Source: Psammoneis japonica
Taxonomy: Eukaryota
Reading direction: 5' to 3'
Assembly (NCBI GenBank): GCA_008632985.1
Contig: QPGO01000283.1
Span: forward strand, 1-64,000
Length of the DNA: 64,000 nt
Part shown: piece after piece, positions 1-30,707 of the stretch
Numbering within the stretch: position 1 is the first letter of the stretch
Layout of the letters: every line of letters starts with the position of its first letter
The notes under the pieces: generated by a model
What the model was told of the DNA's origin: nothing
Databases searched by the model: none
What the model saw: the letters and a program-made list of their open reading frames with translations, nothing else
Position numbers and translations under genes: made by a program

Positions 1-1010
1 CCAACAGATGCTGCTCTGGCTCTTTTGGGGGGTGCCATCTTGCCTCAGAGACACCAGCACCTGTGTTTTTGGCTGAGCATTCTCCTGACATGCTTGCCAA
101 TCTTCCTTGTGGTTTCCACACCAGGACCTGCCTGTCATCCGGACTTAGCAATGGTGTCATGCACCCACTCCTTCAAATTTTTTGTGCTTCCACATTCAGC
201 TGTGTCCTTGCTCACATTTTCCAGGACTTGTGTTTGAGTTCCATGGCTTGCTGACAGCTGCACACTCTGTTTCACTGACCCTGACACAACCTTGCCACAC
301 CTTCTTTTGGCAGACTCTTGCAGCTTCTTCAACAGCAAGGCCCTCCAAAGACCATTTCTTTGCCCTTCTTCAGCTGGCTTGTTTGGTGCAATCTGCCAAC
401 ATGAGGTGTGCCTTTGGATTCCTGTGAACTTCCCACCTTTTCCTTTGGATTTCTGTCAACTTCCCAGCCCTTGTCTTTGGATTTCTCACAACTTCCCAGC
501 ATTGTAACAACACCAATCCTTTGGGTGTTGTGCCGTGCCTTTTTGGCTTCTGCGTTGGAGCTTTGTGGCTTGCCAACCAGCATGCGTGGTGTGGTCTCAC
601 TGACTCCCACACCTGACCACGTAGCTTGCAAACAAATTGTGCCAATGCCGTGGACCACTGTTGCCATGCTGGCCTGGTGCAGAAGCTGAAAAGTGAGTGC
701 AAAACCCACAACTCAATCGGAGCTGCTAATGCAAACTTGCTTTGTTGTCCACAAATGTCAGCATGCCTTTCCCCTGCAACTTTGTCTGTCTGTCCCATGA
801 AAAACACCTCTGACCCCAATGTTTCAACATGTTTCCAGGTTGTGAGCATGGTTCCTGTGTGGACAGTGACAAAACAGAGCAGTGGCATGGTGAATGGGTT
901 GTCTAAACCATTTCCCAAGCCATCATAACAAGCAGCCATGTGATGTGTGACAGCATCAATTGCTGGAACCAGGCTGCAATCAACTGTGAGGTTTTCAAAT
1001 TGCCACAAGG
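1..1010 (-). repeat. Decayed dispersed repeat of unknown family, homologous to 47330-48130
   Basis: 85-510 aligns by eye with 47425-47850 (gacatgcttgccaatcttcc... vs gacatgcttgctgatcttcc...). Both give related minus-strand peptides (xLADCxKQAS, TLGSExxF). Confidence 0.6.
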
Positions 1011-1889
1011 GCTCTGAACATTGTGGCATCCTTTGTGTGCACCACCAACCTGGTGATGTCAAAAAATCTCAATCAAAAGCAAAACAACAAGGTGCACACC
1101 TGCTGCTCATTTTGTCTGCTGCTTGCTTTGTCATTTGCTCTGACAACAGCACAGCCCATGTCCAACTGCATGAAAAACCTGAAGTGCTGGGTGAGCAAAT
1201 GTGGTGTTTGCTCTTTTGATTTTTTGGGAGTGTGCGTGTGTTCATGTGTTTCACAAACTTTCAAGGTCTTTGTTTGGTGACGGTGATGCCAATGCTCAAG
1301 CTTTAAATTTCAAAGTCTTTAAAGAACTCTGGGAGCTGGGTGGGCTGCCTCCCAATCTTGCAAAAATGCCCAAGGTGGGTGCCCTTGAAACTCCAGTGAC
1401 AGCAAAGTGAAAATCCATTGTGGAAAAATGGAAGATGTCAGAGACTAAACTTCAAGTTTGCTCCCACAGCAAGTTGTCCCTTGGTGGCAGCCCACTTCAG
1501 CATGCCTCAAACTGGCATTGTTGCAAGGCACTCCAAGGTGAGGAAAAACAACAGAAATCAAAAACCTGGAAATGCTTTGCACAACTTCTGATCCAACCAT
1601 GGAGGAGGTGACAGAGTTAAGTCTGTGGCTGGGTTGAGCCCATTGTGTGCCAAGATGGTTGCAGGAAATGACACTCTTTTTTTGCCCCTGATCATTGGGG
1701 TGTGCAAGAATCATTGCCACAGCAAGCTTTGCATGGTGGCAAGTCCACAACCACAAAGGACAAGGAGTCAATGAAAAGTGCACTCTTTGGCAAGATCACC
1801 TCTGACAATGAATCTGGAGCACTCATTTCACCATCTTCTTTCCCAACTCTCAATGTGCCAGCCACTGCACTGCTTCTGAAATGACGTGG

Positions 1890-2400
1890 CAATTGACAAC
1901 ACTGTGCTTCTTTCACAAAACTGACTCTGGAACACTCACATTCTTGACAACTCTGCCATTGATGCAAAACACATTCCCTGGACCTTCAACTGGTGCATCA
2001 GAGCATGCATTGCAGTGATCAAGGCTGGTCATTTGAGCAACACTGGAGATGCAAGTTGGTCCACAGAGACAACTTGAACTGTGTGTGTGGGCTGTTCCAT
2101 GTCAGCTCCTGGTTGCTTCATGTCTCATCCTGTTGTTTTTGCTTTGTTGCCTTGGCATCCTGGCAAGGGGAGCATTCAGGCATGTTGCATTTTGCCAGGC
2201 TCTTTGGAAGCACACCCAATCTTGCCATCCATTGCAGTTTCACAAAACTTGTGCAACCAAATTGTTGACAGCATTTCAGGAGCAGCCATGCCTCAGCAGA
2301 TCCTTGGTGGTCCTCCATGTCCTTTGCCACAGGCATTGGCTCAGAGTCTTCATCTGGCACTGCAGGTGGTGTCTTGGAGAAGTCCACTCACTCTGAGGTT
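1890..2400 (-). pseudogene. Copia GAG-pre-integrase / integrase N-terminal fragment
   Basis: ORF 2118-2387 reads QQFGCTSFVKLQWMARLGVLPKSLAKCNMPECSPCQDAKATK, matching the Copia pre-integrase pattern H.RFGH.SF.KLQ.MA..G..PK.LA.C..P.C..C. Confidence 0.7.
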
Positions 2401-2449
2401 AAACTTGGCAAGGTGCCCGTGTCTCCCTTGTGCTTGCCATTCATTGTCA

Positions 2450-2670
2450 GTCCATCTAAGTCAAAAACTGCTGCCGTGGACCCATCACCTTCCCCAGGTG
2501 CTGACCCCAAGTCTTGCAATTGGTTTTGGCTCTCCTGCTGGTTTGCTGCTCCTTGCATGGTGCATTGGTGTCATGTCTCTTCTCATCTTCGTCTTGGTCC
2601 ATCTGAGTCAAAAACTGCCACCATGAACCCATCCCCTTCCCCAGGTGCCAACCCTGAGTCTTGCAATTGG
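2450..2670. repeat. Direct repeat, about 74-bp unit at 147-bp spacing
   Basis: gtccatctaagtcaaaaactgc...tcttgcaattgg (2450-2523) recurs at 2597-2670. Confidence 0.75.
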
Positions 2671-3056
2671 CCTTGGCTTGCAGGTCTGTCAAACAAATGA
2701 CGACCTTACACTTGAGTTTGCATCATGCAAAAGCACTCAGTCATGCATGCATTGCAGACATGGAGCAATGGCCCCTGTTGATTGATCCAATTGACTGCAA
2801 TTCGAAAGGAGCATGAAATGTTCAGAATCCCTCTGTGTTGAGTGTTGAAACTGATCTTTTCAATGCTCTGGGCAAATGGACAATTCAATCCACTGGCACT
2901 CACAATTTGTGAACTTACTTCACTGCAACAACCAAGCTCTTCATCAGTTCAAAGACCTTGGTGAACATTGTTGGCAGATTCCAATGGTCAGCAGTTGGGT
3001 GTTTTGATGCGCTTCCTCTGGACTGAGGACTGAAACAAAAGAGACAACCAGTTGCA

Positions 3057-4255
3057 ATGGCATTTTCTCTGACACCTGCTCAGGCCATCACAGGCATTCT
3101 TGATTTTGTTGAGAAGGCTTGCAGAGCTGTCTGCAAGGTTGACAGAGCTGTCTGCAACAAGACAGTTGAGAAGCTCATGGAAAATGGCTTCAACTGCACA
3201 CAGCAGAAACCATTTCAGTTCCTCAAGACCCTCAAAGAGATCAAGCTGCCACAAATGGTTGGAATGAAGATGATGGGATCTTGATGATTCCCAATGACCT
3301 GACAGACATCATGTCCGACACCACCAATTTATTGACACACCACAATCAAATTGAAATGGATCTCATCTGTGATTGCAAGCACGTGCACATCAATCAACTG
3401 GTGAGGCCAGCAAAAGACATGAGGATGCTGTGCCATCTACTTGTGAGTGCACTTTCTGAAGAAGGAAAAACCAGAATTTTGGTCTGGGGAAAGCAATGTA
3501 AAATTGTCAAGAACAACAAGATGTGTCTCTCAGGAAAAATGCTTCTGTTGAAGGTGACAATCAGAGAAAGGCACCTCAACACCAATGCCACTGCAATGAG
3601 CATGAGGATGAAACTCAGCAATCTTGACAAGTGTGTTGGCACAGCATTGAGCAATGTTGTTAAATGCAACCAATGCATGCTGCTCTTGATGCAAGCTCTC
3701 AAGTTTCATGGTGAGACAACGGAAGACCTTCAATTGAACTTGTTTGAGGGACACCTTGTGGCATCCGACAAGACATTTGTCGATTGTGTCCATCACAAGC
3801 ATGATGAAGGAAATGACATGACATGGATCCCAACAAACTTGTGAGCCTCATGGTCAACAAGTGCAAGAAGATGGTCAAGACAGAGGAATGGAGTGCACCA
3901 TCCCTCAATGAGGAGAACATTCTGGCTCCAGAAGTGAAGGTCAAAACCCTCAAGAAATCATCTCGATGCAAGAAAACTGATTCCAAGAAGAAGGGAAATC
4001 CAAAGGGCCAGAAGAAAGGAGGGAAAAAGACTCACTGTCCCAAGCCCAATTGGTTGGAGAAGGATGAGACCCATGAATGATCAACTTCATGAGCCCCAAT
4101 GTTAGAATGACAAGCCACATTGTTGTTGGGCTGTCATGAAGACATGGGCAGAAAGTGTGAGGAAAAGTGGCAGATCCACAAACCATCAGCATGTGAAGGA
4201 AAAGCCTTCCTTGCTCAGAAACTTGGTGGCACAAAACATCCTTCAGAAAAGAGAA
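3057..4255 (+). pseudogene. Copia (CoDi-like) gag, frameshifted; interrupted at 4256 and resuming at 11331-11450
   Basis: MAFSLTPAQAITGILDF...LLKVTIRERHLNTNATAMSMRMKLSNLDK...GETTEDLQLNLFEGHLVASDKTFV...EWSAPS is a typical diatom Copia gag. A Lys/acidic tail continues beyond the nested element. Confidence 0.75.
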
Positions 4256-4440
4256 TGACAGAACATTGAAGGGCAATGATGATGATGACATGAAAGACTC
4301 CCCAAGCACCAGGACTGTGACAACACGAGCACTGGCAAAAGAGAATGAGAGTCAGATCTCAGAGAGATCTGCTTGTCTGTCTAGAATGGTCTGGCATCGT
4401 CCACACACAGTCTGCCCATCCTGCTGTTAGCAGACTGACA
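4256..4440 (-). repeat. 3' LTR of Copia 4256-11330
   Basis: aagggcaatgatgatgatgacatgaaagactc...cagactgaca matches 11160-11330. The adjacent acctcccctg is a PPT on the minus strand. Confidence 0.85.
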
Positions 4441-4499
4441 ACCTCCCCTGATCTGGAATGTCCAAAAGCTGGAAGACAATGCAGATCAACCAATGAACA

Positions 4500-7400
4500 G
4501 GGATGATGTGAAAGAACAGACCAAATGACAAAACGCAATGTCCAGACCCAATGTGCAACAACCAAAAGGGCAATCAGCAGCAGGGATGCCACCACACAAA
4601 AAATGTCAACGGCAGTGTCCCATCATTTGTTGAGCATGCGATGGTGAGTGTAAAGCACCCATCCCAGAGCCTTGGCAAGGTCATCACTGGGATCAACAAT
4701 GCCAGGGATGTGTTGGGTGGCAATCTTGCCAGCCTCCTTCTAGTCTTGGATCATGAAACATTGAACGTTAATGTGTCGCGAGCACTCTGCAGGGACAGAA
4801 TGGTTGATGATCTTTGTTGCCTGCTCATTGTCAATGAATGATGGTGTGGGTCCCACCTGGGGAAACCCCAGTTCATGGAGAACATGGCAAAGGAAAAGGA
4901 CATGCTTGGAGGTGGTTCCGGTGGCATGGAACTCTGCATCTGTAGAACTTGCAGCAGCGACCAATTGTGTCTTGCATTGGAAGGACACAGCGGCACCAGC
5001 AAGCATGCAACTGTGTCCCACAGTGGATTGGTGGTTGCAAAGGTCATTTCCATGCACAGCATCTGGGAAAGCAAGGAGCTGGTGATCACACTCCACAGTG
5101 GGAAAGGACAGCAAGGTGGGATCATCAATCAACCATTTGCAAGGACATTTCAGCAGGCCAGGGTCCAACTTGGTCTTCTTGCAGTTGAGTTCCCAATTCT
5201 TGGTGTGTTGCAGACACTTGGCAACACCCTTGAGTGCATTGTGATGAGCCACAGAAGGACAAGTGGAGAACTTGAACAGGGCACCTGTGGCATGTCTAAT
5301 GTCCAAATGGCAGACAACACATGCATGCAACAATTCACCAAGTGGACTGTGATGACCAAAGCCAGCTGCTTCCTTTAACTCTGCATGCTCCAAAGTGCCT
5401 TCAGCAGGACCAATGGTGGCACACAATTCATGGATAGACTCGACAGGCATCAACATTGCCTTGCAATCAGTGGTGGGTTCATCTGCAGCAGGTTTGATCC
5501 ATCCATGGGAGACAAAAACATGGTCAATGTAGCCACAGATGGCAATGCCAATGGAGTCATCACACTGGTGAATGTCAACACCATTGAAGTCTCCAATGAG
5601 GCCAAGACACTTGAAGGGTGGACCAGCTTCCAAAGGAAGTTGGAGAGCTTTGCCAATCTTGTCATAGATCTTGAGCACAATGGCTTCTTTGGGACATGCA
5701 ATTGAAAAATCATCAACCTGGTGCAAAAGCAGTGCCTCGTGTCTGTTGAAGGCAGCGGAGCAAATGCACTTGTTGTGGGCAGTGTCATGGAACAAAAGAA
5801 TCACATCAGAGAGAATGCCATTGATGTGATTCTCCCAGAGCACGCCAGCTTCTGGGTGTCCTTGGAGAGCATGTTGCATTGGAAGAACCACACTCAGATC
5901 CAACTCAACTCAAAATCCAGACTTGCACCATGTTGCACAAGCTTCATCAACCGCAACATAAACAGAATGAGAAGGCACTGGAAAGTGTGCAAATGCATCT
6001 TGTGCATCGCCTCCACAAATGCGACAGCTCAGAGTCACAGCAAGGGCAAAAAACATCCGGCAGACAGGTCATCAACACACAAAGAATGAGCGGAGTGAAG
6101 GAATGGTGTGTGCCATCATGCTTGAGGTCATGCTGCCAATGGGGATGGAGGACCACAGCATCCTTGGGGCATTTGATGGGTGCACCAAACATGCCAAGCT
6201 CGTGAAATTGATCAAATTGCTTGAATTCACTGGCATGCCATTTGGGGCAAGAGGGTAACTTCTTGAGATGATGATGGGTGAAAGCACCCAATGCTTGTTC
6301 CACTGGAGCAACAGTGTGAGATGAAATGGTGTGTGGGTTCATGACACCATTGTCATGATCAATGTAAAGTGGTGGGGGTTCATCAACATCATCCAAACTG
6401 GAGAAGTCAGCATCAGGGTGTTGAATTGCTGCAATCGCTTGAGTGTCAGCCGGAGAAAAATTCTGGCACATGTTCCTCATCAGGATCCAGTGCAGGAGCA
6501 AAGATGTTGCACTCTGCCAAAGCACATTGTGCAATGCCTTAGAGTCAAGATGGCATTGGGGAGTAAATTCAATCTCAAAATGTGTCTTGTCTGAGTCATG
6601 CATTGCTTGCAACCACTTGACAGCATCATCCACAGTAAAAACACTTTGGTCGTCAATGGAGACAATGCATGCACCCAAAATCTTGTTGTGAGTCACTTTC
6701 AAAGAAGAAAACAAGTGAGCAGCATGGGTGCCATGTTGAATGTCCAAGACACAGACACATTGACAGAGCTCATCGGTGTGGAGGGTCATGCCAAAAGTAG
6801 AATCAGTGAACAGACCCTTCATCATGTGAGTGACAGTCTTGGCAAAAGGGTTGCTGACAAAATGAAACTGCTCCACAGTGGTTTCCTCAGATTCAGTTGG
6901 AATGGGTTCACCGGCTTGAGCACCTTCCAAATGAACCACATTCAGGGGAATGGAATCATGGTCCAAATCATTCACCCCCTCGTCAAATCAGACATGCTTG
7001 GTGGTCTTGACACGAGATGTCTCGGGGTCACACTGAAGGATGTTCTTGGCAGTGTCAGGCAGGTGTCCCAAGAAAATCCCCTTGCAAGAGTTTGTTCAAA
7101 ACTTTGCCCTCTGATGGTTTGATGCTCATGCCCAAACGTGGCAACCAAAAGTCCAGAATGCAGAGAAATCATGTTTCTCACCCACAGCAAGAGCAATCAG
7201 AGCAGCTTCCCATCCTTTCAATGATGCAGCATTCTTGATCCGCAAACAATGGTGAAAAGCACACGGCCAAAACTTTGTGGGCAAATGAGCACCTGTCAAT
7301 GTCACCCGAGTGGCATTGTGGCAATGGTCAAATGACTCTTCTCCACTGGGCCACTCTGATTTGAAGCATCCTCTTTTCCAGTGGGACAAATCACACAGTG

Positions 7401-8565
7401 GAAGTCATCCTCAAAAAGTCACTGAACTGCTGGGTTGCAATGCAACTTGCTGCCTTGATCCAGAAAGACACCTTCACCCAGACATTTTGGTGAGTGCTCC
7501 TCCAGAAAATGGTGAGTCCAATTCAAAGGGGGCAGCTTTGGAAACACAAGCAGCACCATGAAGACATTTTGCAGCATCATCACAGACGGTGATCCAACAA
7601 GTTTCAACATGATCAACCAAGCATTGTTCATTCTTGGAATGCAGGCCAGAGAAAGAGAAATCAATGGCAAGGCCTTGGCAGGGCTGGGTTGCAGTCATCG
7701 TAGAATTTGGATGAGTGGCTGCCTTGGTCTGTTTAGCTTGTGTGCAAGTGGGACAGGTGTCCAAAGGGGATGTGCCATGAGCAAGCTTTGGAACACCATC
7801 AACATGTTCATGGGCATGATGCAGATGGTGATCACTGGGGTGGCCAAGGTGTTGGTGCCACAAGAGTTGTTCAGTGTCTGCCTTGGTGAGAGACTGAATG
7901 GGGATCATCTTCTTGGCATGTTCCTTGAAAGGGACATCTTGGCAGACACGAGGCATTGATTTACATTCTTCATGCAAGAGGTTGTGTTGGGAGTCATGAC
8001 ATGTTTCAATCATGTGTGCCAACACAGCTTTGCATTCATCAGCAAATGAAGGTTCACGCTCTTTCAATTGTGCTGTTGACTCATCAAGAGCTTCATTGGA
8101 TGTTGGAGGTGTGAGAGGGTGCCCACAACATTTGCCATTGATTGATTGTCCATGGATGACAACATCCTGACTCTTGCGCAGTTGATGACATGCCATGCTG
8201 AACTTGCAGGTGCCCAAATTGTGGAACTTGAGGATGCAATCAACATTGTGGTCCTTGCCATGCCATCCATTGGTGAAAGCAACAAACGTTCACCAAACAG
8301 GGTGGAATGAATCTTGGGATGACAGCAAGTTCAAATTGGCATGCAGGCCCATCTCAGGGGGGTTTTCCATGGGAATGTGTAGGTGTCCAAAGCCAAATGG
8401 CATTGCTTCATGACCTGATGCCAGATTAACAGCAAGTGGACATGGATTGTCCAGTGTAAAATCTTGGTGTTGGTGAAGGAGGTCAGGTTCACCAGTGCAC
8501 GCAACATCAGCACCAGCATCCAATTGATCACATTGTTCATCAGGTGCAAAGGAAATGGCACTCAC
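4500..8565 (-). pseudogene. Copia pol (PR, integrase, RT, RNase H), with multiple stops and frameshifts
   Basis: ALQGHPEAGVLWE, LLHQVDDFSIA (RT), AFPDAVHGND and AAASSTDAEF (RNase H), AHLPTKFWPCAF (INT). Confidence 0.85.
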
Positions 8566-11145
8566 TTGAACCAGTTCACTGTCAATGTGATCTGCCTCAG
8601 AAGCAAATGCAATGGTTGGTGTGACAGAAGTGACTCAAACAGAATTGATCTCCACCATCCCTTCTTCGTGGTTGATGCTGTTGCATTCAAAGTCAAACAA
8701 TTTTTCTGATTCGACAGAGGGTTGATGTTGCCTCCCCTGCTCTAAAGAATTTATGGCTGGATCATTGTCCGGCAGGGTGCTGACATCTGGTGTCAAGGAT
8801 GGCACTGGAGATTGTTGGTTGTCCTGTGTTGTCATCAGAGAAAGAGGTGGAGCAATGGCAGGTGACAAAACTGGCAGCCCCTCTTTCACAGTCACCCCGT
8901 GTCTTAGTGAGGAGAAAATGGGCTGTGTTGCAGATCCAAAACTGACTGCAATGGCCCCATTGAAAATCCGGAGACTTGGTGCTGGCACTGGTTGCACCAT
9001 CTGGAGTTTCCTTGGCAGATGGCAACAAACCTTGAGGTCCTTGGAATGTCACAGCCTGCATGGCTGCCGCCCACTTCAAGAACCGACAAAAGCAAATGTG
9101 GAAGCCTTTGATGTGTTGAGTGTTGTTCAATGCTGGGCAGTCATCAAACAAATGGATGCCTGAACAAACTGTGCAAGTTTGGTTGGTTGCTTCCTGTGGG
9201 TTGACCTTGAGCTTGTAGACAGAGGCAGCGCAAGCATGATGGAGGAGGCGATCCTCATCAGTGAGAGGCACATCAATGCCAGCCAATTCTTCACACAGGA
9301 TGTTAAATGTGTTCTCACTTGGTGCAATGGCATCATTGGGGATGTTGTTAGGGTCAGGAGTGTTGTCAACATGAGCCTCCACAAGAGGTGCTTCCAGAAT
9401 CTGCAAAGCATTGATCTCAATGGTGGCGCGGCAAGTGTTGTCTTGATTGTGGTCCCATTTGTGGCATGGGTTGCGAACGTTGGTGCAATTGGAGACAACA
9501 GGACTGTCAGATTGATGCAGGAAGTCTGACAGTGTCTCAACAATCTGGGCATCCATGTGCTTCTTTGGCAATGCTGGAGACTTGCATTTGTCATGTGCAG
9601 CACAAGACAAAACTTGGAATGCCTCATGTTCTTGATGAAGACAGTCATCTCACATGAGTCATCCAATGTAGAGTCCACATCAAAGACACAAGCACAGTGC
9701 AACTGTAGAAAATCCTTGAAAATGATGTGGTGGTCGGTCAGCAACAAGTTTCCTTGCGCAGGACAGGAATCCACCAATCCAGTGGCTTTGTCATTGAAAG
9801 CCAGATGATTCTCACATGGAATTTGCTTGAGTGCTTTGTGTCCAATTTCACAGCACAAAGCAACAACACGATGGCACTTGCTGTTCTTGGGGAACACATT
9901 TGCCTTGGAGAGAATCTTGTGGAGAGAGCTCTCAGCTTCCTTGCAATGTGTGTGCATGTGTTGGGGTGAGTCATCATCCTTGCCATTGCCAATTGTGAAT
10001 CCTTTCTCACCACCGTGGGTCTTGACAAAGCACAGCAAAGGTTGCATGCAGGATCCAGAGTCAAAACAGCAATGCTGGAAATTTTGATGCCAGCCAGAGA
10101 GAGTTGTCATGACACACAGGCAGCTCTCTGAACAACATCTTCTGATCAGGAGTTGATTGAGCTTATGATGAACAGAGTGCCACCATTGAGGATGATGTGG
10201 TCAGAGGCATCAATGCAATGGTGGCATCCATGCTCACATTGGGTGAGTGAACTTTGCAAGGCAACTTTGCCCAATTCCTTGCGACTGCAATGTTCACGAA
10301 CATCCTTGGATAAGGTGTTGGGATGCTTTGATGCAACAGCCACTGCAGCAGCACCTCCTGCAGTCTTCCCAGCAGCAGTCAAAGGCAGAGCTTGGCTTGA
10401 TGCAAACTTGTTGAGTGCTGTAACTAGATCATTCACACCAACAGTTGATGATCCCACAGACATCAAAGATTGGGGTGCAGATGGTGTCTTCCAGGTGCAT
10501 TCTTTGAGAGAGAATTTGCTCCAGTCTCTGTAACTTGATTTCATGGCAGGATCAAAGTGCATGTGCTGCATTGACATGAGAACATGGAGAGATTGTTCGT
10601 GTCTCTGAAGAGACATCTTGATCGTGGATGAGATAGCTTCAGGGGTCAGACAAACCACACGGAGCTTGTCAGGGTCAACAATGTGAAAAGGAGTTTCACC
10701 CACAATTGTCTTGATGGACTGCATGTCCATGTGGCAATCCACCGTGTGTGGTGGAAAAGCTTGATTGATGAGAAACTCTCAGAACAAGTCCACAAAATCC
10801 TTCTTGGACCAAGCATGCTCTGGGCATTCAAAGAATGGATCAAGATCGAATGTGGGGTCCATGTGCAGCATGTTCAGGCCTGTGCAGGAATGTGACAGAA
10901 TAGGATGTGCTTGGAATTCATGACAGATCTCTGCAATTGACATGGGAGTGGCCATTGTGTGGCCAGGAGACATCATGGTTGGACTTGGTGAAAACATTTT
11001 TAGTCATGATGCACACACAGAAATCTGGTGTGTTTCTACCAGCTTGAAAAATGCCGGGAAAGCAAGGGAAAAAAAATCCTTTGGGGAACAAAGATGGGGC
11101 TTGCTTGATCGGCTTACAAAACAAATGAATTGCAGTGTTGCAGGC

Positions 11146-11159
11146 ACAAGGCCACAACC
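11146..11159 (-). promoter_or_regulatory. Decayed primer-binding site, half-tRNA-iMet type
   Basis: The minus strand directly after the LTR reads ggttgtggccttg, resembling the copia-type half-tRNAiMet PBS GGTTATGGGCCCAG with a TA>TG change. Confidence 0.5.
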
Positions 11160-11330
11160 TGACAAAATGCCAAAGGGCAATGATGACAATGACATGAAAG
11201 ACTCTCCCTGAGCACTGGGACTGTGACAACATGAGCACCAGCAGAAAAGAATGAGAGGCAGATCATCTGTCTAGAATGGTCTGGCATTGTCCTTGTGCAG
11301 TCTGTCCATCATGCTGTCAGCAGACTAACA
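11160..11330 (-). repeat. 5' LTR of Copia 4256-11330
   Basis: Minus strand runs TGTTAGTCTG...TTTTGTCA and is homologous to 4256-4440. Confidence 0.85.
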
Positions 11331-12199
11331 AAGAATGATGAGCCAACATTAACCAAGAAGATCCAAAAAGACCTCAAGTCCCTCAAGCCATCAGAAGCTC
11401 CTCCTCTCACTGCCACCACAGATGAGATTGAGTCCTCCAATGAAGAATGACTGGCAGAGCAAGGTGACAAGCCTGATTGTGATTGGGGAATCCAGGGTGT
11501 TGCCATCTGCGTGCATCATTTGCTGCATGGTTTACAACTGTGGTTGTGGCTGTGCCACTGTTGGTGGTGCTGCCAATGCAATTTTAGTGGCTGCAACCTG
11601 CAACTGGATCTCAATCACAGTTCATGAATTGTTGAGGGAAGCAAATTGCAAACACTCTTCTGAACAAATTCATTGCCCCAGAGCTCACATCATGTTGCTG
11701 ACAATTGTCATTTTCCATCTCATTGTTTTCTTTGGCAAGAACCCTGACAACCCCAATCTGTGCTGCTTTTCATGATCAAAACATTGGACAAAAGGTAGAA
11801 GATTGATGTGGCAGGCCCAGTCAAGCATGCAATGGACAGGAAAACAATTGATTGATTTGTCTAAAACAAAATCAATCAACTGTCCACAGCCAAACAATCC
11901 CTGAGAGGGAGAATCAGGTGAGCAATTGTGTGAAACACCTTTGCCTTCTGCATCTTGTAGATTGCACTTTGTTTCACATTTCACATTGCAATTGCATTTC
12001 TTGCCCCAGACTGCCTTGTCCTTCTCTGATGCAGTGTCTCTGTCTGGTGGGGCAATGATCTGACATGGTGCACCAATCCACCCACAAAATTCTTGCCCAT
12101 CGTGCCAAAAATTTCTTGATTTTAATTTAAAAACTCTTGCACCCTGTGCCAGAAATCTTAGTTCTGATGTAAATTTTTTGTCACGCATCACAAGAAAAT

Positions 12200-12395: not shown

Positions 12396-13403
12396 ATAAA
12401 TTGTGCTCCAGTCAATGCCTGACTCACATTTCATTTTTGTTGTTGCTGGTGCAGTGAGTTGAATCTTGGTTAATTTCTCTCTGCTGTTGTCACACACTGC
12501 TGTTTGCCAGTGAACATCACTGTTCTGCTGCCCGTGTGTTCATGAGATCCTCATCCGCTTCTGTGGGTTGTTGTTCACTCTGCCTCCTTGAGAACCCATT
12601 CATGTCAAAGCACTGTTGTCAGTGGCTGTTGCTCCCAGAGTCCCCACCTCTGTGTTCCCATGTGCATTGTTCCTTCCTGTTGCTCCCTCTTCCCTGTCAC
12701 TCCCATCAGTTTTCAGAGCAGCCCATCCCTTCATGTCATCCTTCTTTTTCTTCTTTGTTTTCTTGCCACACTTGCTCTCCAATTTCTTTGTTTGCAGGTG
12801 GTGTGCATCGACTCTGCTGTAATCTGTTCTCTCCTGTGCTGCTGCACAGTGTAGCTCGTTGCATTTGTCGATCCCATTCTGGTTCCATCCTTGATTTTGC
12901 TTTGCTCCCTTTCCCTCTGGAATGTGCACTTGGGGGGCCCACCTTTATTTTTTTTGCTAAACGTCCTTTTTTTTGCTGGAGGCAAGCCCAATGTTTACAC
13001 ATGGACATTAATGTGTGTCACATTGGGCAATCAATGCTGATGCCTTATCCATACATAACATTGTAATAAGTGAAAAATGTAAACAGCCGACGCCGTCCCA
13101 TGTGGGAAGATGGCACAGGCTCATCCCTTCAGAACCACTAAATCAACCACCACCACTGTCAGGCATCCACTGCTAGCCCGTGATCAAGACTACCTACATG
13201 TCACAGACGAGTCCGCCAAAACATCGCGCAGAGAAGTGCCGCCACCCCCATATATCCTCGTGGCAGCATACATACACTATATACATTATTTAGCTCCACC
13301 GCAAAAAAAAATACACTGCATGTTGAGTAATATAAAATGTGAGGATCCTATAAGTAACAACACACCTTTGTGCACGAATGTGTTATATTTCAAATTTTCC
13401 ACA

Positions 13404-13790
13404 TGCACTATGCTCGAAGAACGAGTGTAGGGCCCTAAACGAAAGTAGAACGAAGTTCAAAAAGTGAAAATTATGAGAATTATTTCTACGCGATCATTTT
13501 GGGTTTCTCCGAACGGGTTCTCAACAGCCTAAACCTTTTGTACTGCTCCTACAGACAAAAGGCCTTTCGGAGAATACGATCGTGACAACAGATTGTCCGG
13601 ATACGATTGACATTGACACATAAGATGTCAACATCATCGTACAGTCGCATTTGCGATTCTCGACATCCGATCAACTCTGTGTGATTGATCTGTCCTTCGT
13701 ACGAACCCACGATTGACGTACGATTGGAATATAAATTTGTTTTATATATACATATACATATATATAACATACATAACAACGCATGTTGCA
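13404..13790 (-). repeat. 3' LTR of Gypsy A
   Basis: Matches 30329-30707 (taaacgaaagtagaacgaagttcaaaaagtg...). Confidence 0.92.
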
Positions 13791-13816
13791 TTCGTCTCCC
13801 TAATTGCACATTAGAG

Positions 13817-14242
13817 TCAGTCGTTAAACGGTATTATCCGACGGATATTGACAGTGTCAATGACGTCACCGCGTTTGATCTGCACTGTGCCATTAGTGTG
13901 TACCGTTGTTATCACATACGGTCCAACATAGGGCTGTTCTAATTTCTGCGAGTCTTTTTCGAGTAGTATCTTCTCTCCTACTCTGTACGTATAAGGAGTA
14001 TGTCGAGCATTCTCTCGAGCGTTATTTTTATTTATGATTTCTTGTTTTCGCTGCTGGATTAATTTCCAGTCTGCGACATGTTGGACGTTAAATATCATGT
14101 CTCTGTTAAAGACCAAATGTCCAGGTGTAGCTTGCGTAGTGGTATGATAAGTAGAACGTACTGCAAATGCTGCCGCTGACAATGTTCCAGCGAAGGGATC
14201 CTCAGTGTCCAGAGGTGTGTGTTGCAAATCAAGTGTACGAAT
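13817..14242 (-). pseudogene. Gypsy A integrase C-terminus
   Basis: AAAFAVRSTYHTTTQATPGHLVFNRDM...EQPYVGPYVI (GPY/F motif). Continues ...HQVLGNV from 19350. Confidence 0.9.
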
Positions 14243-15147
14243 CAATGGCAATCTTTCGGCTCTCAGAGTCATTCTGGCCAGTGTGGCGGTTAAATTTAAT
14301 TAACACTGATGTGAGAAAACAGAAAATTCTATTTAACACTTTTTTGTCGTGCGACACTTGCAACGCCAAAATTCCGGGTAACTTTCGAAATCAGATCTGC
14401 GATCCGCATTGGACCGCGAAGCAATGGCGCTGCATCGTTTCGCATCATGGGAGGATGCTGAGCCAAATCCCAGTCACCCTTGCATCAGGATCGACTGGTT
14501 GCGGGCCAGCATGTCCACAGGTGAATTTGTTTTTGTGGATTGCCGTGCCACAGTGCTTGAGAACGAAATCAACAACGTTAACAGCGTCTGTGCCAGAGCA
14601 GTTGACGTTGCAGCGAATGGGTTGATGAGAGTCAATCTTTGTCCCACTGACGCGTTCCAGACGTAGGTGGGAATCCGTGTGACATTGGGCCCGTAGAATT
14701 CTACGTGCGAGCTCCGTAGTAAAATTGTGCGGTAATTAGAATGTCAATGTTCGCCAACAGAAAATGAGGCAATTTTGCGAACGCACAAACTCGCACATGA
14801 TTGAAGTACATCGATTTTTACTTGGCCAGTTACATTCTTCAGACATTGAAGAATGTGACTGGCGCATTGTTGTTTCTATGTGTGCGTCATGTAAAACGTC
14901 TGGGGCTTCGCAAAACAGCAAGTCTGGACAATTTTTTTTAAATGTCACACATAGAAATGTACGTGCAAAACACACGACGGATGATAAAAATTATTTGTGT
15001 CACACGTCAGCACTGCGAGCTCCCACCTGGGGCTGGAACGCGTCCACTTTGACCGATGCCATCGGAAGTAGACTGTCAAGTTTTCGATTAACGATGTCTC
15101 ATGAGCGATGCATCCCTGAAGTTCACTAATCAGACTGGAGCCTTTGG

Positions 15148-16190
15148 GTGGCGAAAGACAAGATTGTGGATTTGTCTTTTGTGTTCCACGCCAATCAAAT
15201 TAGGCAGGAGGAGCATTCAGTGCAAGGGATGGAAAGAGCCCGGATTTTTCGATGCAGGCTCAAGGGACCAGATCATTCTGAAATTGCTCATGTCAGAGGT
15301 GAGCTTTTCAAATCCTTTCCATGTGAGCTCGTGTCACATTCGACGTTGTTCGTTGATCCGAGCACCTCGTGTTTGGTGTTTGATGGTGTCTTGGATGTTT
15401 CCAAAGCACTTGTCCAAATCCTCAACTGTGGGCGAGAGTCCACAGGATGATTCTATCGAGACAGGCGGTGCATTCGAATTTCTAATGTGGCATTTGAGTT
15501 CATCCGACGTGCCACTGTTTCAACAAACCCTCGGGATGCGGTGTCAAGAATTCGACATGAGAAGAAGGTGCTGCCCGGCCTCGATGTCAAAAAGGTTCGC
15601 AACGACCGCAAGTTTGATGTTTTGCATTATGAAACAGAGGATCAGCTGACAACCCTGTCCGAACTGTTGGGGGAGTCTGCTGTGGGTGGGTTGCGAGTGA
15701 AACACCGACTCAAAGTTGGCGCCACCACCCACCTCAAGCTGAACGACTGCATCAATCACGTCACTGGCTCTGAAGAAGAGGAATTTGAGTGTCAAAAAAG
15801 AACAACCCATCGTGGCATTGACATTCTCCGCAATCGCCAGGAGACAGTGGTGGAGGTACGATGCGCCCTGTTCATCCTTGACAAGTCGGTCAGGACAGCT
15901 GATTTCCCCAACATGCGATTGCAAAAGCTTGTGCGCTGCCAGAATCCATTTGGAGCCAACAATGGCGATGTGGGTATCAATTTAGATCAGCAGAATCAGC
16001 ATGACACCCTCTTACGACCCGGCATCAAGTTTGATCACGTGGGCAACACGTGCACCATTGAATCGGTGAATGCTGAGGCGGGAGTGGTCAGTGCACGGCT
16101 TTCCAACAGTGTTGACGCACCTGCACAGTTGTTTGACACACCAAGTGCATGTGCGGCAGTCAAAACTAAATGTAACTTAAACAAGCATGC
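15148..16190 (+). pseudogene. Second (accessory) ORF of the DNA transposon, function unknown
   Basis: ORFs 15148-15450 and 15487 onward share a frame and are separated by one TGA. Protein-like composition up to about 16190, tail-to-tail with the transposase. Start and end are approximate. Confidence 0.55.
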
Positions 16191-16392
16191 ATTCCGTCAG
16201 CACCAGTGTCAGTGGCACAACATTTGTTGGCTGGTGCTGCTTGTTGTTCTAAGCGTGAAAATCTTGTTTTTCACCTTCCATCCCAACATTCCCTGCCGGA
16301 TGCACCGACTCGCCATCATGTCCCGACAGCCACATCATTCGTCGTTGAAGCCATTTCGCTGTGGCGCGCAGCTTGGACGCGTTACCTTTCCC

Positions 16393-19145
16393 TCATCCTA
16401 CAGCACCGCCATGATTCGTCCTTTTGAAGAAGAAAGCCTTCAGCATGGCATTCAGATGCTCCCAACCTTGCTGACTGTAAATGCAGAGGTTTCTCCACTT
16501 GAGCATGAATTCTTTCATGTGGCCGCAGCCAAGCATGTGAATGTAATTCGAAAGTCCCTCAACTCCATAGAGATGCGTCCAAATCTGGAAAAAATCATCC
16601 GCTTCAAACTGATGCTCTGCAATGTCGTCATTGGACAGGTCATCTTTGGATCTCATTATTTCTATAGAACGCTCAAGGTGCGGCACACACACTGTCCATT
16701 GGTCTCGACGGTCCTCATCAACAACTGACAGGTGCACCAACTCGTCTATGCCGTCAAATGTTTTTCGAGTTCGTGGATTATCCATGCGCAGCTGCCCAAC
16801 CTCCTTCTTGTTTTCCTTCAAAGGAAATCTCCATTGTGATGGGTTGTCATTGTAGGAAAGGAGAGTCTGGTTGACAATTGACTCAATGCTTTCAACATGA
16901 CGCTTGATGCGTCCCATCGCGCTCCGCACCTCTGGAAAAAGCGAGCCGTCTTCACAGTTTGCAATCCCCTCCTCGAATGACATTGTGAGACATTTGAGTT
17001 TTAGCCGAGTTTCCATGTGTAATGCGCAAGGGATGGCCGACATCAATGCGTAGAATGCCTTTTCATTCGGTTCCACATGTGCCAAATCTTCCTTGAGAGA
17101 GACAAGTAATTTCTCACTGCCGATCCTCTCCCTTGATCGTTGACTTTTGTCTTCCATGGAACCATAAATGCTCATCTGTCTGATGTTCAACTCTCGGTCC
17201 AACAGTTCACCAAAGTTTGTTGCTTCATCCACAGCCTCCGGCTGGAAATCGATCGACAAAGGGTCACGATCGCCTGCTTCCGTTCCTGTTTCAGACATTC
17301 TTATCTTAGTTTTTCCGTCTTCGGGCAACACATCGCCTGTGATTGTTTACAGACGAGCCACCTCCTCGTCCAGTTTCTCAATAAATGTTTCATCACCGAC
17401 ATCTTGGTGGTGGCAACGCCACTCGTCGTCGCCCCCGTGCAATCCTTCGCACCGTTTGCAAAGGTCGTCGTTCGGGACGGCGCAGTTGTCGGATTTGCAT
17501 GGGCAGCATGGGCAAAAGTAATCTTTCACCTTGCAAGCTCCACCTTTGTGAAGGCCCTTTTGATGGGCAATGTGGTCACCCGTGTGTGACACTTTAAGTG
17601 GTTCTTTGTCATCATCCAGAGGTTCCTCCTCGCAGTCGTTCATGAATTTATAGAAATCTTCAAATGGCTCGAAAGTCTCTTTGCTCTCCTGACCTGTCAT
17701 CACTTGAAATGGGAAACAGCGGTGGCTGGATTGTGCTGTTGATACACCGCTTGTGACCACCGAGCTGGTGAGTTTGTCCATAATTTGACACCTGCCGCGA
17801 CGATGTCATCACGCTTGTTCAGTGTCGCGCCATCAACAGCAGCACTCACTTCCACGCGTCTACTGGCTAAATCGTCCCACAGGCCGTGGGCTTTTAACAA
17901 TGTGGTGAGTGTTGGGTTTGGCTCAAATTTGAAGCCTTCGCCATGTTCTGTGTTAACCATTGACATGGATGCTTTCCCGTCTTGCGCCGCAGCCTCGACT
18001 TTTTTTGCTGCGCCGTACAGAGCTTTGGTTGACGGTGTCACACCACGAAAATACCTGGCGCCACCACTTTCCACCAACCGAAGAACCTCCACTCCTGAGT
18101 ATGACAGCTTTGATCCAGCAAGATCCATGGCTCTTAGAAGTTTAGAGGGTGTGAATGCATTCTCCTTAAACCATTTCCGAGACCGCTCGATAACGGGGCT
18201 TTTGAGAATGCCACTGCAGAAGTCGTCTGAGAAAATGGCATCCACCACCATCGTGTTGGTCTTCTTTATCCCGACCTTTTTACATTGGCGGTTTAACCAC
18301 TCTTCTAAAAAGGTTTGTAGTTCTTCCTTTGCATCCACTTCATTGCTTGATGCTTCCTCATCTTCTTCAGATTCTTCTTCTGTTTCTTCATAAGACTCGT
18401 CGTCGTCGTCTTCGTCTTGGCTTGCCTGTGCCACCATCTCTCCTTCCAGAAGCCTCCTTCTCTTTTTCGGGTGACCCTTGTTTTTGCGGTTCATTGCTGC
18501 AATTTTTTCACGGGGAATCACGTCCGATTTGTGGCAGTGCGCTCGACTCTTCGTCTCTAGCTTCTGTGTGGGGCCAATCAACGAGGTGTGATTGGCTTCA
18601 CACCGACACCTCGCGCTGCTGCGCTTTGCCTTGCCGCTAAGGACATGCTTCTCCTTGTCCCACAGGTCACAATGATGGCATAGAAAATGTCCTTGATCTC
18701 GAAATTTAACATGCCTGTTGATGCCACAGTCGCAGCAAGTGACAGCAGCACTGCCCCTTCTTCGAAGCGTGCGACTACGAGCAGACCTAGATGCCGGCAA
18801 ACAAAAGCCACGTGTGATGACTCGTCTGGCTCGGCTTGGCTGCTCTGCACTTGTTCTTGAGGTGGTTGGAGTTGGGGTGACTGCGGCAGAATGTCCAGTG
18901 CTTCGTCCAGCAAGCCTCTTGCTGGCACGCAGTGCAACCGGAGCAGTTGCACTCATCGTATCTCGTGTCTCTTGGTTGGCGCCATTGTCAGCCATGGAAC
19001 CATCGGCATGTTCAGCGCCTCGTCTGTTCTCATCAGAATCTGGGTTCGTAATTTCTACAGGCTCCCACGCAGGATGTGCTGAGGATGTTAACGTCCCGAA
19101 CCCCAATCGGAACACCATCTTAGCCAATTCTATTTCTGCGAACAA
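16393..19145 (-). pseudogene. DDE transposase of RAG1-core/Transib/Chapaev type (frameshift near 17782, in-frame stop at 17347)
   Basis: Motifs in order: AAVDGATL, SSHRCFPFQVMTGQESKETF, HTGDHIA, YFCPCC, IPCALHM, SNYIHMLGCGH, YSQQGWEHLN. The N-terminus has a Cys/His cluster, a basic stretch and an acidic tract. Confidence 0.75.
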
Positions 19146-19349
19146 AAAACGACTTGACTGTAAACTGATCAGGTGTACTTTTCTTCAACCCATTTGCAAA
19201 AATACACCTGACCCGATAACAGTCAAGTCTATTTTTGCAAAAATTGTGTGAACATTAGAGTTTCAGTACAAAAACGTGTAGATTCTACAGACAGCCATGA
19301 GCAATTTTGGCGTTTTCCGTGAGGGGTCATTTTCGAAAGATTCCTATTG

Positions 19350-22030
19350 ACATTTCCGAGCACTTGATGTGCGCGTTCAATAATTGCATTTGCTTGTGGA
19401 TTTCGTGTAGTTATAGGCTTGACTTTAATGCCACAGTCCTCTTGCACCATGTCTTTGAATTGGTGTCCGATGAACTCACTTCCACAGTCACATGCAATTA
19501 ACGATGGCCAGGGGCATCTACTTGACCACGTTCGTTCAGTAATCCAGCTACAGTTGTGGATTCCTTATTTGGGATTTCCACAACTTCAAACCATCCAGTT
19601 GCTGGATCAATCATTGTCAAACATTTCAGGACTGGGGGTTCTTTCTTTCCCTTGTGACGCATTTTGTATGGGCCAACAAGGTCCACACACAGTCGTTCCC
19701 ATGGCACTGATTCTGCGCACTTAGGAGGTAAATGTCCATGTTTCTTGTGTTTCTTTTTGAATTTCTGGCAAGTCTCACATTTCGACACGTATTTTCGTAT
19801 GTCTTCACGTAAGGTGCACCACCACAAGTGTTGTGAGATTGTCTCTTCTGTTCGATTTATGCCAGGATGGAGAAGGTGCGCATGACACCAATCTATCACT
19901 GCTTTTTGCAATGTCTTTGGAACGACGATTTTATCCTTATGACATGTGAGCAACCGGTCTCGCTTGCCTCCATGAAAAGTCTTTGTATGAAATGTCTTGT
20001 TTGACAATTTGGAGAGAATGTCTTTGTCCCGCTTTTGTTCACAATCAAGAACTTTATAATTTGACGGAAAGACATTGTCGTGGGATTTTGGTGGGACCTT
20101 TTCAGCTGATTCTTCTGTGCTGAGGGTTTCCATGGGTTCTATTTTTCTCACAGTGAGTCGGCTGATCGCATCTGCGACAATGTTTGCCTTGCCCTCAAGG
20201 CACATTGTTTTAGGACTGCATTCTTCCATTGTTGGACGCCAACGCATGACTCTGTCTGTTGTAAAATTTTTGTGTGTGAGATTTTTGTGATCCGTGTGTG
20301 TTTGTCTGTTGGCCAAACAGCACATTTCAGAATTGGTCAGTTTTTCTGCACAATGACCGCCCCCAATTGAGAATTGCTCGCATCAGCGTGTGTCTCAAAG
20401 GGTGTGTTGAAATTCGGACATGACAACAATGTGTCTTTGGAGATTGTGCGCTTCACATTTTCGAAGGCTTTTTGTTCTGTTTCGGTCCATTGCCACTTTA
20501 CTTGGGTTGAAGTGAGTTTGGCTAAAGGAGCTAAAACATGAGATCGTCGAGGCCACATGTCTCGACAGCAGTTGATCACACCGACAAAGCATCGCAATTC
20601 CTTGCGAGTCTCAGGAGTTGCGATCGCGTGAATCGCTTCTACCTTTTTTGGAATTGGACTGATGCCATTGCGGGTGACATAGAAGCCTAAGTAGTCTACT
20701 CCGGGTTTAGCAAAAAGGGACTTTTCGGCGTTGACCTTCAATCCAGCTTGTTCTAGGCGTAAAAACACTGTCTCAAGCTTCTTGAGGTGGTCTTGGAAAT
20801 CACCTTTTGTAAGGCACAATGTGTCGTCAATGTAAGTTCTGACGAACTCCAGACCTGCCATGAGCTCACTCATGTGCTCTTGGAAAATGTCTGGAGCTCC
20901 ACAGATTCCCATGGGGAGTGTGCAGTGCTCACATTTGCCCCAAGGCACAACGATCGTGCACAAACGACGTGCATGCGGCGTCAGCTCGATGTGATAGTGT
21001 CCCACATTTAAATCTAGGGATGTTGCACACATGAAACCTTCAAGCTTCTGCAGCACATCCTGAACATTGGGCAGAGGAAACGGAGTGCATGTTAACCTCT
21101 TATTTGGCTCACGAAAGTTGGATGGAAACCGAACTCGACCATTTTTCTTGGGTTGAATAAAGGTTGGAGCAGCCCATTCAGAACAATTTATTTTTCTTAA
21201 GACCTTTAACTTGCACAGTCTTTCAACCTCCTTACGAGCAGTCGCCTCCAAGGCTTGTGGTGCGGGAAATGGTTTGGCATGATGCGGACTCATGCCCGAT
21301 TTCAACTTCAAATCCACCGGTTTCCCGGTCCATTTGCCTAGAGAACCATCGAAAAGGTTTTCAAATCTTTTTAAGAGGAAGTTTAGCTGCTTCTGCTCTT
21401 CAGGAGTTAGATGAGTAGCTGCTGCTGTCACATCATTGAGGTTTGCAGCGTGACAGTCTGAGTCAAGGATCCGATTGACCCCCTGTCATTAAGACTGATC
21501 ACTGCATGAGATTCCTCAATATGATCGGCAATCAACTTAAAAACATCAGCATCGAAGAGTGCACCAACATTCTTCATAGGGGCAGTTGCATCTTCCCATT
21601 TGATCTCTTCATTCGAGAAGTCTGACACCACCCCAAGACTCGACATTAAGTCGCGTCCCATGATCATGTCATGACGACTCCAAGAAGAAGAGGAATTGTC
21701 AACACACGCCGTTGTTTCGATCATCTTATGTTTGTCAAATTCGGGTGAGGAGAATTGGATTTTACATCGACTGTCAGTCGTAAAGAGCCCTCCTTTGGTT
21801 TCCCAGAGTTTGGTGGCGGATGCTTTGGTTCTGAGTTTCCGCGTGAATTTGCGCAAAATTATGGTTGACGATGTTCCGCTGTCGAGGAGAATGGGTAGAG
21901 GCTTATTTTTCGCTTTGCCTAAAGAGGCATTCATGTGGGCGATGACTGCTGGACTAGCATGAGTTATTTTGGCCCTTTTTCCGGGCTTCCCAATGTCCAG
22001 CAATGCGCAAGACTCCTCTTGCGGTGCAAG
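19350..22030 (-). pseudogene. Gypsy A pol (PR, RT, RNase H, integrase)
   Basis: LLDSGTS (PR), EWAAPTFI and RTYIDDTL (RT), THADASNSQLGAVI (RH), HPGINRTE..CETC and CVDLVGPY (INT). Confidence 0.92.
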
Positions 22031-30217: not shown

Positions 30218-30328
30218 CCAACGGGGTTGAGGTGCGATTCTCTCCTGCCTTAACGAAGTCTTGGTGTTGGTTGCATGAGGTGAAAGCTTCATCTTGAACT
30301 TGTTATCTTCTGTGGTGTGTGTGCACAA

Positions 30329-30707
30329 TGCACTGTGCTCAAAGAACGAGTGTAAACGAAAGTAGAACGAAGTTCAAAAAGTGAAAATTATGAGAATTAT
30401 TTCTACGCGATCATTTTGGGTTTCTCCGAACGGGTTCTCAACAGCCTAAACCTTTTGCACTGCTCCTACAGACAAAAGGCCTTTGGGAGAATACGATCGT
30501 GACAACAGATTGTCTGGATACGATTGACATTGACACACAAGATGTCAACTTCATCGTACAGTCGCATTTGCGATTCTCGACATCCGATCAACTCTGTGTG
30601 ATTGATCTGTCCTTCGTACGAACCCACGATTGACGTACGATTGGAATATAAATTTATGTTATACATGCATGTGCATATATATGACATACATGACAACGCA
30701 CATTGCA
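30329..30707 (-). repeat. 5' LTR of Gypsy A
   Basis: Matches 13404-13790. Confidence 0.92.

Follow-up and report, generated by a model that had tools for sequence, protein, structure and literature searches.

We analysed a stretch of 64,000 nucleotides from the genome of Psammoneis japonica (GenBank assembly GCA_008632985.1, contig QPGO01000283.1, positions 1 to 64,000 of the forward strand). It is called here the window, and positions refer to it. The window contains a DNA transposon copy of 5107 bp, bounded by imperfect inverted ends of 16-17 nt. The copy carries two genes that face each other tail-to-tail. One encodes a transposase, and the other is a partner open reading frame (ORF) that we call ORF2. 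Very probably, this copy is a dead member of a large and apparently undescribed family of two-gene DNA transposons of ~5 kb, present in diatoms and other microbial eukaryotes. The family would form a separate lineage of the CMCT clade (CACTA/EnSpm, Mirage, Chapaev, Transib and relatives). The features of the copy are the following.

14243..19349, strand not assigned: whole transposon copy, delimited by the inverted ends, the integrase halves on either side and the joints of the empty sites; it includes a nested miniature inverted-repeat transposable element (MITE) of 396 bp and its 4-bp duplication.
14243..14258, plus strand: terminal inverted repeat (TIR) on the ORF2 side, beginning with CAATG.
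14424..14648, plus strand: N-terminal 75 codons of ORF2 (starting with MALHRF, within the ORF 14382-14666), truncated by the MITE; its N-terminal pattern resembles that of the family consensus.
15049..16200, plus strand: remainder of ORF2, convergent with the transposase; the 3' end is approximate, the next in-frame stop lying only at 16728.
16249..19118, minus strand: transposase pseudogene of ~950 codons, delimited with ORFs, translation, tblastn with intact homologs and the hidden Markov model (HMM) of the family.
17832..17834, minus strand: codon of the putative first catalytic Asp (VDGA).
17575..17577, minus strand: codon of the putative second catalytic Asp (TGDH), with C-x2-C 21 residues later.
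16459..16461, minus strand: codon of the putative catalytic Glu (QQGWE), 20 residues past the second His of N-Y-x-H-x5-H, placed with the tblastn alignment.
19334..19349, minus strand: TIR on the transposase side; the minus-strand reading is CAATAGGAATCTTTCG.

The transposase frame opens at 19184 on the minus strand, with the first Met at 19118, and extends to ~17781. The frame shifts somewhere in 17781-17748, after which a second frame runs on to 16249. In-frame stops occur at 17347-17349 (TAA) and 16393-16395; the natural stop is likely the one at 16249-16251. The tblastn alignments of intact homologs pass through all three breaks. Therefore, the breaks mark a pseudogene rather than the introns of a spliced gene. 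The family HMM matches it at 17781-18776, 17353-17748, 16396-17313 and 16297-16392.

An earlier reading of this DNA from its letters only (the sequence-only reading) had described a frameshift and one stop. The frameshift is real, and the stops are two. It had also placed a convergent ORF2 at 15148-16190. This gene exists and is tail-to-tail with the transposase, but with different borders: it starts at ~14424, is interrupted by the MITE and resumes at 15049. The order of transposase motifs that it listed holds throughout, all of them falling on invariant or near-invariant columns of the family alignments.

The family is large. A word-index search with the transposase gave just 5 relatives. 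A profile search over 1.84 billion cluster representatives gave 3386 family members at E<=1e-3, and 529 at E<=1e-30. The full-length transposases have ~1000 residues. The Pfam search of the window ORFs, the transposase pieces included, returned nothing relevant. Likewise, none of 58 family members matches a Pfam transposase family, including RAG1, Transposase_21 (PF02992, the domain expected of EnSpm/CACTA) and DUF1280 (PF06918, expected of Chapaev).

We measured column conservation in two transposase alignments, one of 80 sequences (P0001 numbering) and the other of 67 sequences (L009 numbering). In both, the invariant or near-invariant columns comprise two Asp, C-x2-C, a Cys3-His cluster, C-x2-H, N-Y-x-H-x5-H and QQGWE, and the window transposase retains all of them. 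The first Asp is the near-invariant D459 (L009); its catalytic role is suggested by the motif order and the fold. The second Asp and the C-x2-C pair correspond to D555, C576 and C579, invariant in the 67 sequences, and to D223, C244 and C247 in the 80 sequences, where C244/C247 are near-invariant. In the latter alignment, N571, Y572, H574, H580, Q596, Q597, G598 and E600 are also near-invariant. The His pair of the family is H574/H580, with the spacing H-x5-H.

A first AlphaFold2 model, made from 7 sequences, was unusable (predicted local distance difference test, pLDDT, of 49). The model of the intact member P0001, made with 80 sequences, reached a pLDDT of 93.7 and a predicted template modelling score (pTM) of 0.91. 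In the Foldseek search of this model against the PDB, the matches listed at E<=1e-3 were all RAG1, HzTransib or BbRAGL (best E 2.6e-10); the next fold was Hermes (E 0.26). With VIA-align, residues 13-650 of the model were aligned with residues 459-1005 of RAG1 (Z 21.2, 452 residues aligned, root-mean-square deviation 4.6). HzTransib followed with Z 20.4 (416 residues aligned), and the amphioxus RAG1-like protein BbRAGL with Z 19.1. The P element transposase (Z 10.8), ISCth4 (Z 8.6) and Hermes (Z 7.1) scored lower. The model thus predicts a RAG1-type fold across the whole catalytic region, the C-terminal ~640 residues, and this prediction is well supported. Against the RAG1 core (4wwx, 5zdz) and HzTransib (6pqx/6pqn), the likeness of this region amounts to Z 20-21 over ~415-460 aligned residues.

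The order of motifs points in the same direction. In the family it is D, D, C-x2-C, C/D-x2-H, the His pair and E, the same as in RAG1 and Transib; the colinearity of the window motifs with specific residues of RAG1 is putative, the agreement being established at the level of fold. The differences are that the His pair is spaced H-x5-H instead of H-x4-H, that the family has an extra conserved Cys3-His cluster past C-x2-C and that no similarity to RAG1 or Transib is detectable at the level of sequence profiles.

This extra cluster has the form C-x3-C-x10-C-x-H. It is conserved at residues 262-279 of P0001, immediately past C-x2-C, and its composition suggests a second zinc site, which is not known from RAG1. 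Other observations concern the N-terminal region and the upstream end of the gene. A zinc-ribbon-like C-x2-C-x16-C-x2-C is present at 18690-18760 of the minus strand (weak Pfam match to zinc_ribbon_6, E 0.88), and the N-terminal regions of other family members give weak Pfam matches of coiled-coil type. At 19143-19237 there is an inverted repeat of 40 nt (83%) with a 15-nt loop. It sits a short way in from the end on the transposase side and overlaps the open frame at its upstream end; it might serve as a promoter element or as a subterminal binding site.

The ends of the element were compared across the family. Complete elements, 4.9-5.2 kb long, occur in nine related loci; their inverted ends of 12-26 nt match perfectly or nearly so and enclose both genes. 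Counting the window, the ends begin with CAATA in eight of the ten complete copies and with CACTA in the other two. Six of the seven related CAATA loci carry CAATACCAGCC... (L038 with one mismatch in one arm), and the seventh carries CAATACGGATC. The window ends read CAATG and CAATA, the G being consistent with the decay of TA to TG in this genome. An inverted-repeat search gives 14242-14258 / 19334-19350 as the outermost pair (17 nt, 88% identity). The homology between copies ends exactly at the first C of the ends, and all ten have 5'-CA..TG-3' termini.

Direct repeats of 2-10 nt immediately next to the ends are absent from all ten complete copies, and no fixed target motif was found at their insertion sites. 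Two copies show offset repeats. In L022, the 7-nt repeat ATCCTAC (99-105, 5135-5141) is offset from the ends by 1 and 2 nt (shuffle p ~0.03). In L038, the 5-nt repeat GTGCA (222-226, 5163-5167) lies at offsets of 0 and 4 nt (shuffle p ~0.15). The remaining eight gave nothing above chance, and no consistent rule emerged.

The borders in the window were examined with contigs from one public sequencing run (X1), aligned to positions 13400-20400 for read depth and empty sites. Two of them come from other copies of the retroelement in which the transposon is inserted. They connect 14236 to 19353 with 10 letters between, and represent empty sites. Since these sites are in paralogous copies of the retroelement, the transposon is a true insertion with sharp borders. 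The depth inside the transposon is ~32-60, about that of a single copy, versus thousands in the retroelement flanks. When the window was compared with itself, no second copy of the transposon appeared.

The partner gene is more elusive at the sequence level. Used as a single-sequence query, the window ORF2 matched no homolog; its homology emerged only through the DNA around the transposase relatives. These relatives are 80 metagenomic loci, found in a search with an alignment of transposase C-terminal fragments, and the ORF2 HMM was built from 36 proteins. This HMM matches the window at 15145-15441 (E 1.2e-12) and 15505-16110 (E 3.2e-22), where the gene aligns with the ORF2 of the related loci. 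The piece at 14424-14648 is short and does not reach E<=1e-3. By frame arithmetic, the reading frame is unbroken over the MITE once the latter and one CACT copy are removed. In-frame stops lie at 15127-15129 and 15448-15450.

With this HMM, ORF2 is present in 50 of the 51 loci in which 1000 nt or more follow the transposase match (the exception is L075). Overall, 64 of the 80 loci have it, and in all 64 it is downstream and on the opposite strand. Both ORFs are intact, with at least 900 and at least 400 codons, in 19 of the 80 loci, and their 3' ends are 19-270 bp apart. The ratio of nonsynonymous to synonymous rates (dN/dS) is 0.09-0.14 in each of 15 pairs, from six copies in one assembly. 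These values indicate that ORF2 is under purifying selection. Proteins of different subfamilies are mutually just 18-60% identical. The 20 ORF2 homologs are all unnamed ORFs that differ little in length, and none belongs to a host-gene family. One of them, P0160, falls in a 90%-identity cluster that includes a record whose label gives it as an MMETSP transcriptome sequence from Attheya septentrionalis, and further homologs are located on Attheya scaffolds.

These results bear on whether ORF2 is a passenger that plays no part in transposition, either a gene captured from the host or a nested element of unrelated origin. In run X1, the depth is ~20-110 higher over the ORF2 stretch (about 15050-16207) than over the transposase stretch, and at 15205, 15250 and 15254 some of the aligned contigs carry small indels. 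The genome may thus contain elsewhere a second, diverged and partial copy of ORF2 without the transposase, which a passenger could produce. However, a passenger would hardly keep a constant place and orientation in nearly all the loci with room for it, across subfamilies so divergent, with dN/dS of ~0.1 and with no host-gene family among its homologs. We consider this the least probable of the explanations, with very little chance of being right.

No known domain was recognized in ORF2. None of 31 ORF2 proteins matches kelch, RAG2, PHD or any other Pfam family at E<=10, and the ORF2 profile gave no RAG2 match in the PDB. The ESM Atlas search with ORF2 gave no usable match, and its ORF2 model was poor (pLDDT 0.38). 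A BAH domain was considered from a weak match to Arabidopsis SHL (5znp_A, E 0.018, profile positions 7-136). A profile restricted to the N-terminal 150 residues failed to recover this match, and the domain is an unconfirmed lead only. A co-fold of the transposase core with ORF2 146-446 scored 0.00; alignments were unused and the partner fold was uncertain, and the result speaks neither for nor against binding.

The combination of a RAG1 fold and a convergent partner recalls the Transib and RAGL transposons. Their hallmarks, in the parts of the sources available (PMC4411706, PMC9435367), are a 5-bp duplication and CAC ends resembling the heptamer of recombination signal sequences. A true Transib/RAGL transposon, with ORF2 as a highly diverged RAG2-like subunit in a pair of ProtoRAG type, would agree with the top structural matches (RAG1, HzTransib and BbRAGL) and with the convergent layout. 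It would also agree with the host: a RAG1L-RAG2L transposon, AanRAGL, is described from another stramenopile alga, the pelagophyte Aureococcus, although with its two genes in the same direction (available part of PMC9435367). As in RAGL elements, two genes lie within one pair of TIRs in the window and the nine complete loci. However, the relation to the RAG1 core appears at the level of fold only. Neither the two empty-site contigs nor the ten complete copies show a 5-bp duplication. The CAATA/CACTA ends have just CA in common with the CAC-type heptamer, and the TIRs are short and symmetric (the outer 14-26 nt were compared), versus the asymmetric 12/23 type of RAGL elements, with its two conserved boxes and unequal spacers. 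Moreover, Transib differs from the family in lacking a conserved second gene. The RAG2-like partners of RAGL elements are kelch propellers, often with a PHD finger; ORF2 has no kelch, PHD or RAG2 signature in its sequence, though it might still fold as a propeller. A true Transib/RAGL element is highly unlikely, and the parallel with ProtoRAG would be one of gene arrangement only.

The CMCT clade offers a closer frame. Its features, in the part of PMC12730594 on which we draw, are C-x2-C and H-x3-4-H motifs, CA..TG termini and duplications of 2-5 bp. In the stretch from the second Asp to the Glu, the family has C-x2-C and a His pair; its termini are CA..TG, with the exact CACTA in some copies. 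A RAG1 likeness visible only with sensitive methods is reported there for other CMCT families, such as ESTA by means of HHpred. As this likeness is common to the whole clade in that account, the expression RAG1/Transib-like has to be taken broadly. The differences from the clade so described are the spacing H-x5-H, the conserved convergent partner gene and the lack of a 2-5-bp duplication, both in the empty sites of the window and in the ten complete copies.

Within this clade, the family could be a divergent EnSpm/CACTA (CMC) group, possibly already catalogued, with ORF2 as the counterpart of the second, DNA-binding CACTA protein. CACTA elements do encode two proteins, and two of the complete copies have CACTA ends, the other eight having CAATA. 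The zinc and His motifs, the termini and the RAG1 likeness listed for the clade fit as well (same part of PMC12730594). Nevertheless, the 58 members match neither Transposase_21 nor another Pfam transposase, and a 3-bp duplication is absent. The two CACTA proteins, besides, come from one transcription unit and not from convergent genes. Full-text searches on diatom Transib or CACTA, on RAG1-type transposons with a BAH domain and on Lanisha found no description of the family, though an unpublished Repbase entry is conceivable. We regard an EnSpm/CACTA origin as unlikely, though it deserves serious attention.

Given the absent hallmarks of Transib/RAGL and the partial presence of CMCT features, we assign the family to a distinct CMCT lineage that is not Transib, RAGL, EnSpm or Chapaev. 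This agrees with the sequence-only reading, which had supposed a RAG1-related transposon of a distinct lineage with its own partner protein. The fold supports the first part; the lack of Pfam and profile matches, the ends of its own and the missing 5-bp duplication support the second; the conservation and selection of ORF2 support the third. That reading had also seen ends starting with CAAT rather than CAC, no 5-bp duplication and no kelch or PHD motif in ORF2. The last two extend to the family, and CAAT begins the ends of eight of the ten complete copies. Had ORF2 been missing from other copies, the lineage would have been in question; it is present.

Several points weigh against this assignment. 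The family sequence profiles match no RAG1 or Transib chain in the PDB at E<=10, giving just low-complexity or chance matches. With no such match and no Pfam transposase in the 58 members, the kinship rests on the predicted fold and the order of motifs. Similarly, we infer from order, spacing and fold that the conserved D-D-E and zinc ligands correspond to the active and zinc sites of RAG1. The H-x5-H spacing departs from the H-x3-4-H of the clade (available part of PMC12730594); because its position and context are otherwise as expected, we read it as a variant of the CMCT motif. The absence of a target-site duplication is unusual for a DDE transposase. Compared with the two empty-site contigs, the filled site in the window is longer by 5106 bp, and the element itself measures 5107 bp. 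The empty copies have 10 letters where the window has 9 flanking letters plus the element, so there is no duplication, to within one base. The flanks of the nine metagenomic copies are possibly chimeric, and this comparison therefore carries most weight. Finally, Repbase may already list the family under a different name.

For the missing duplication there is a precedent. Spy elements, relatives of PIF/Harbinger, are DDE cut-and-paste transposons without duplication, in the part of PMC4122938 consulted. They differ in belonging to another transposase superfamily (PHIS), and the family studied here has no fixed target motif.

Around and within the transposon copy, three other features were located.

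13817..14242, minus strand: C-terminal part of the integrase of the host retrotransposon, in the flank (ORF 13817-14299).
19350..19564, minus strand: catalytic-core part of the same integrase, in the other flank (ORF 19229-19564).
14649..15044, strand not assigned: nested MITE, 396 bp long; its inverted ends measure 24 nt, the 4 bp CACT are duplicated on either side of it (14645-14648 / 15045-15048), and contigs have loose ends at 14649 and 15044.

The integrase belongs to a long terminal repeat (LTR) retrotransposon, and its minus-strand frame is split by the transposon between the two ORFs listed. Paralogous integrases elsewhere in the window are uninterrupted across the equivalent junction. 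A direct repeat of 388 bp (93.6% identical) at 13403-13790 and 30328-30707 is probably the LTR pair of this host. The spacing of 17 kb implies further nested insertions. Between these repeats, at 24-30 kb of the window, the GC content rises up to 0.53-0.58.

The MITE, whose sequence begins with GACGCGTTCCAG, is a later insertion in ORF2 and not part of the transposon family. Its summed contig depth in run X1 is 62,766-162,958, versus ~32 for unique DNA. This places it among the most abundant repeats of the genome.

The dinucleotide TA is depleted in the own DNA of the transposon (observed/expected 0.19-0.32), with TG and CA at 1.3-1.55. The MITE is less depleted (0.57) than its surroundings (0.19-0.25). 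Elsewhere in the window, the TA ratio is 0.08 at 1-12000 and 0.22 at 31000-64000, with TG/CA in excess, and nearly normal (0.87) in the retroelement stretch 13403-14242. In the window transposase, Tyr residues conserved in the family are read as His or Cys: W-x-C-Y-H is WRCHH, and N-L-Y is NLC. The depletion and these losses fit a hypermutation that erases TpA. Judging from the frameshift, the four in-frame stops across the two genes, the MITE in ORF2 and the heavy loss of TA, both genes of this copy are dead.

If the family is a separate CMCT lineage, as we propose, an intact element would have TIRs of 14-26 nt beginning with CA(A/C)TA and two convergent, intronless genes. The first would encode a transposase of ~1000 residues, with a RAG1/Transib fold in its C-terminal ~640 residues and the motifs D, D, C-x2-C, a further Cys3-His cluster, C-x2-H, H-x5-H and E. 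The second would encode the ORF2 protein of ~440 residues, with no recognisable domain. As in RAG1-type enzymes, the transposase would bind and pair both ends. Its DDE site would then cut them and join them into a new site, by a cut-and-paste mechanism. ORF2 would be an accessory factor encoded by the element and required for its propagation. Its role might be comparable to that of RAG2 for RAG1, or to that of the second CACTA protein.

A bolder version is that the family represents an independent and widespread two-subunit system of RAG1 type in microalgae. Here, a partner of new fold would license or target the transposase as RAG2 does, and the joining would be staggerless, hence the lack of duplication. 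We think this version rather improbable.

One RAG1-type transposase became the V(D)J recombinase, and the origin of the dependence of RAG1 on RAG2 is still argued. An abundant family that is RAG1-like by fold only, and that has a conserved partner, would be a second natural case in which to study the role of an accessory subunit. With both genes intact in 19 of the 80 loci, this question is open to experiment. The missing target-site duplication, if confirmed, would be rare among DDE transposons. Since Pfam does not detect it, the family has probably gone without annotation, or under a wrong label, in the genomes of diatoms and the metagenomes of plankton. If the two-subunit version were true, the pairing of a RAG1-fold nuclease with an accessory protein would have arisen more than once, or would predate the RAG1-RAG2 pair. 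It would also mean that the stagger of strand transfer can evolve within the RAG1-type fold.

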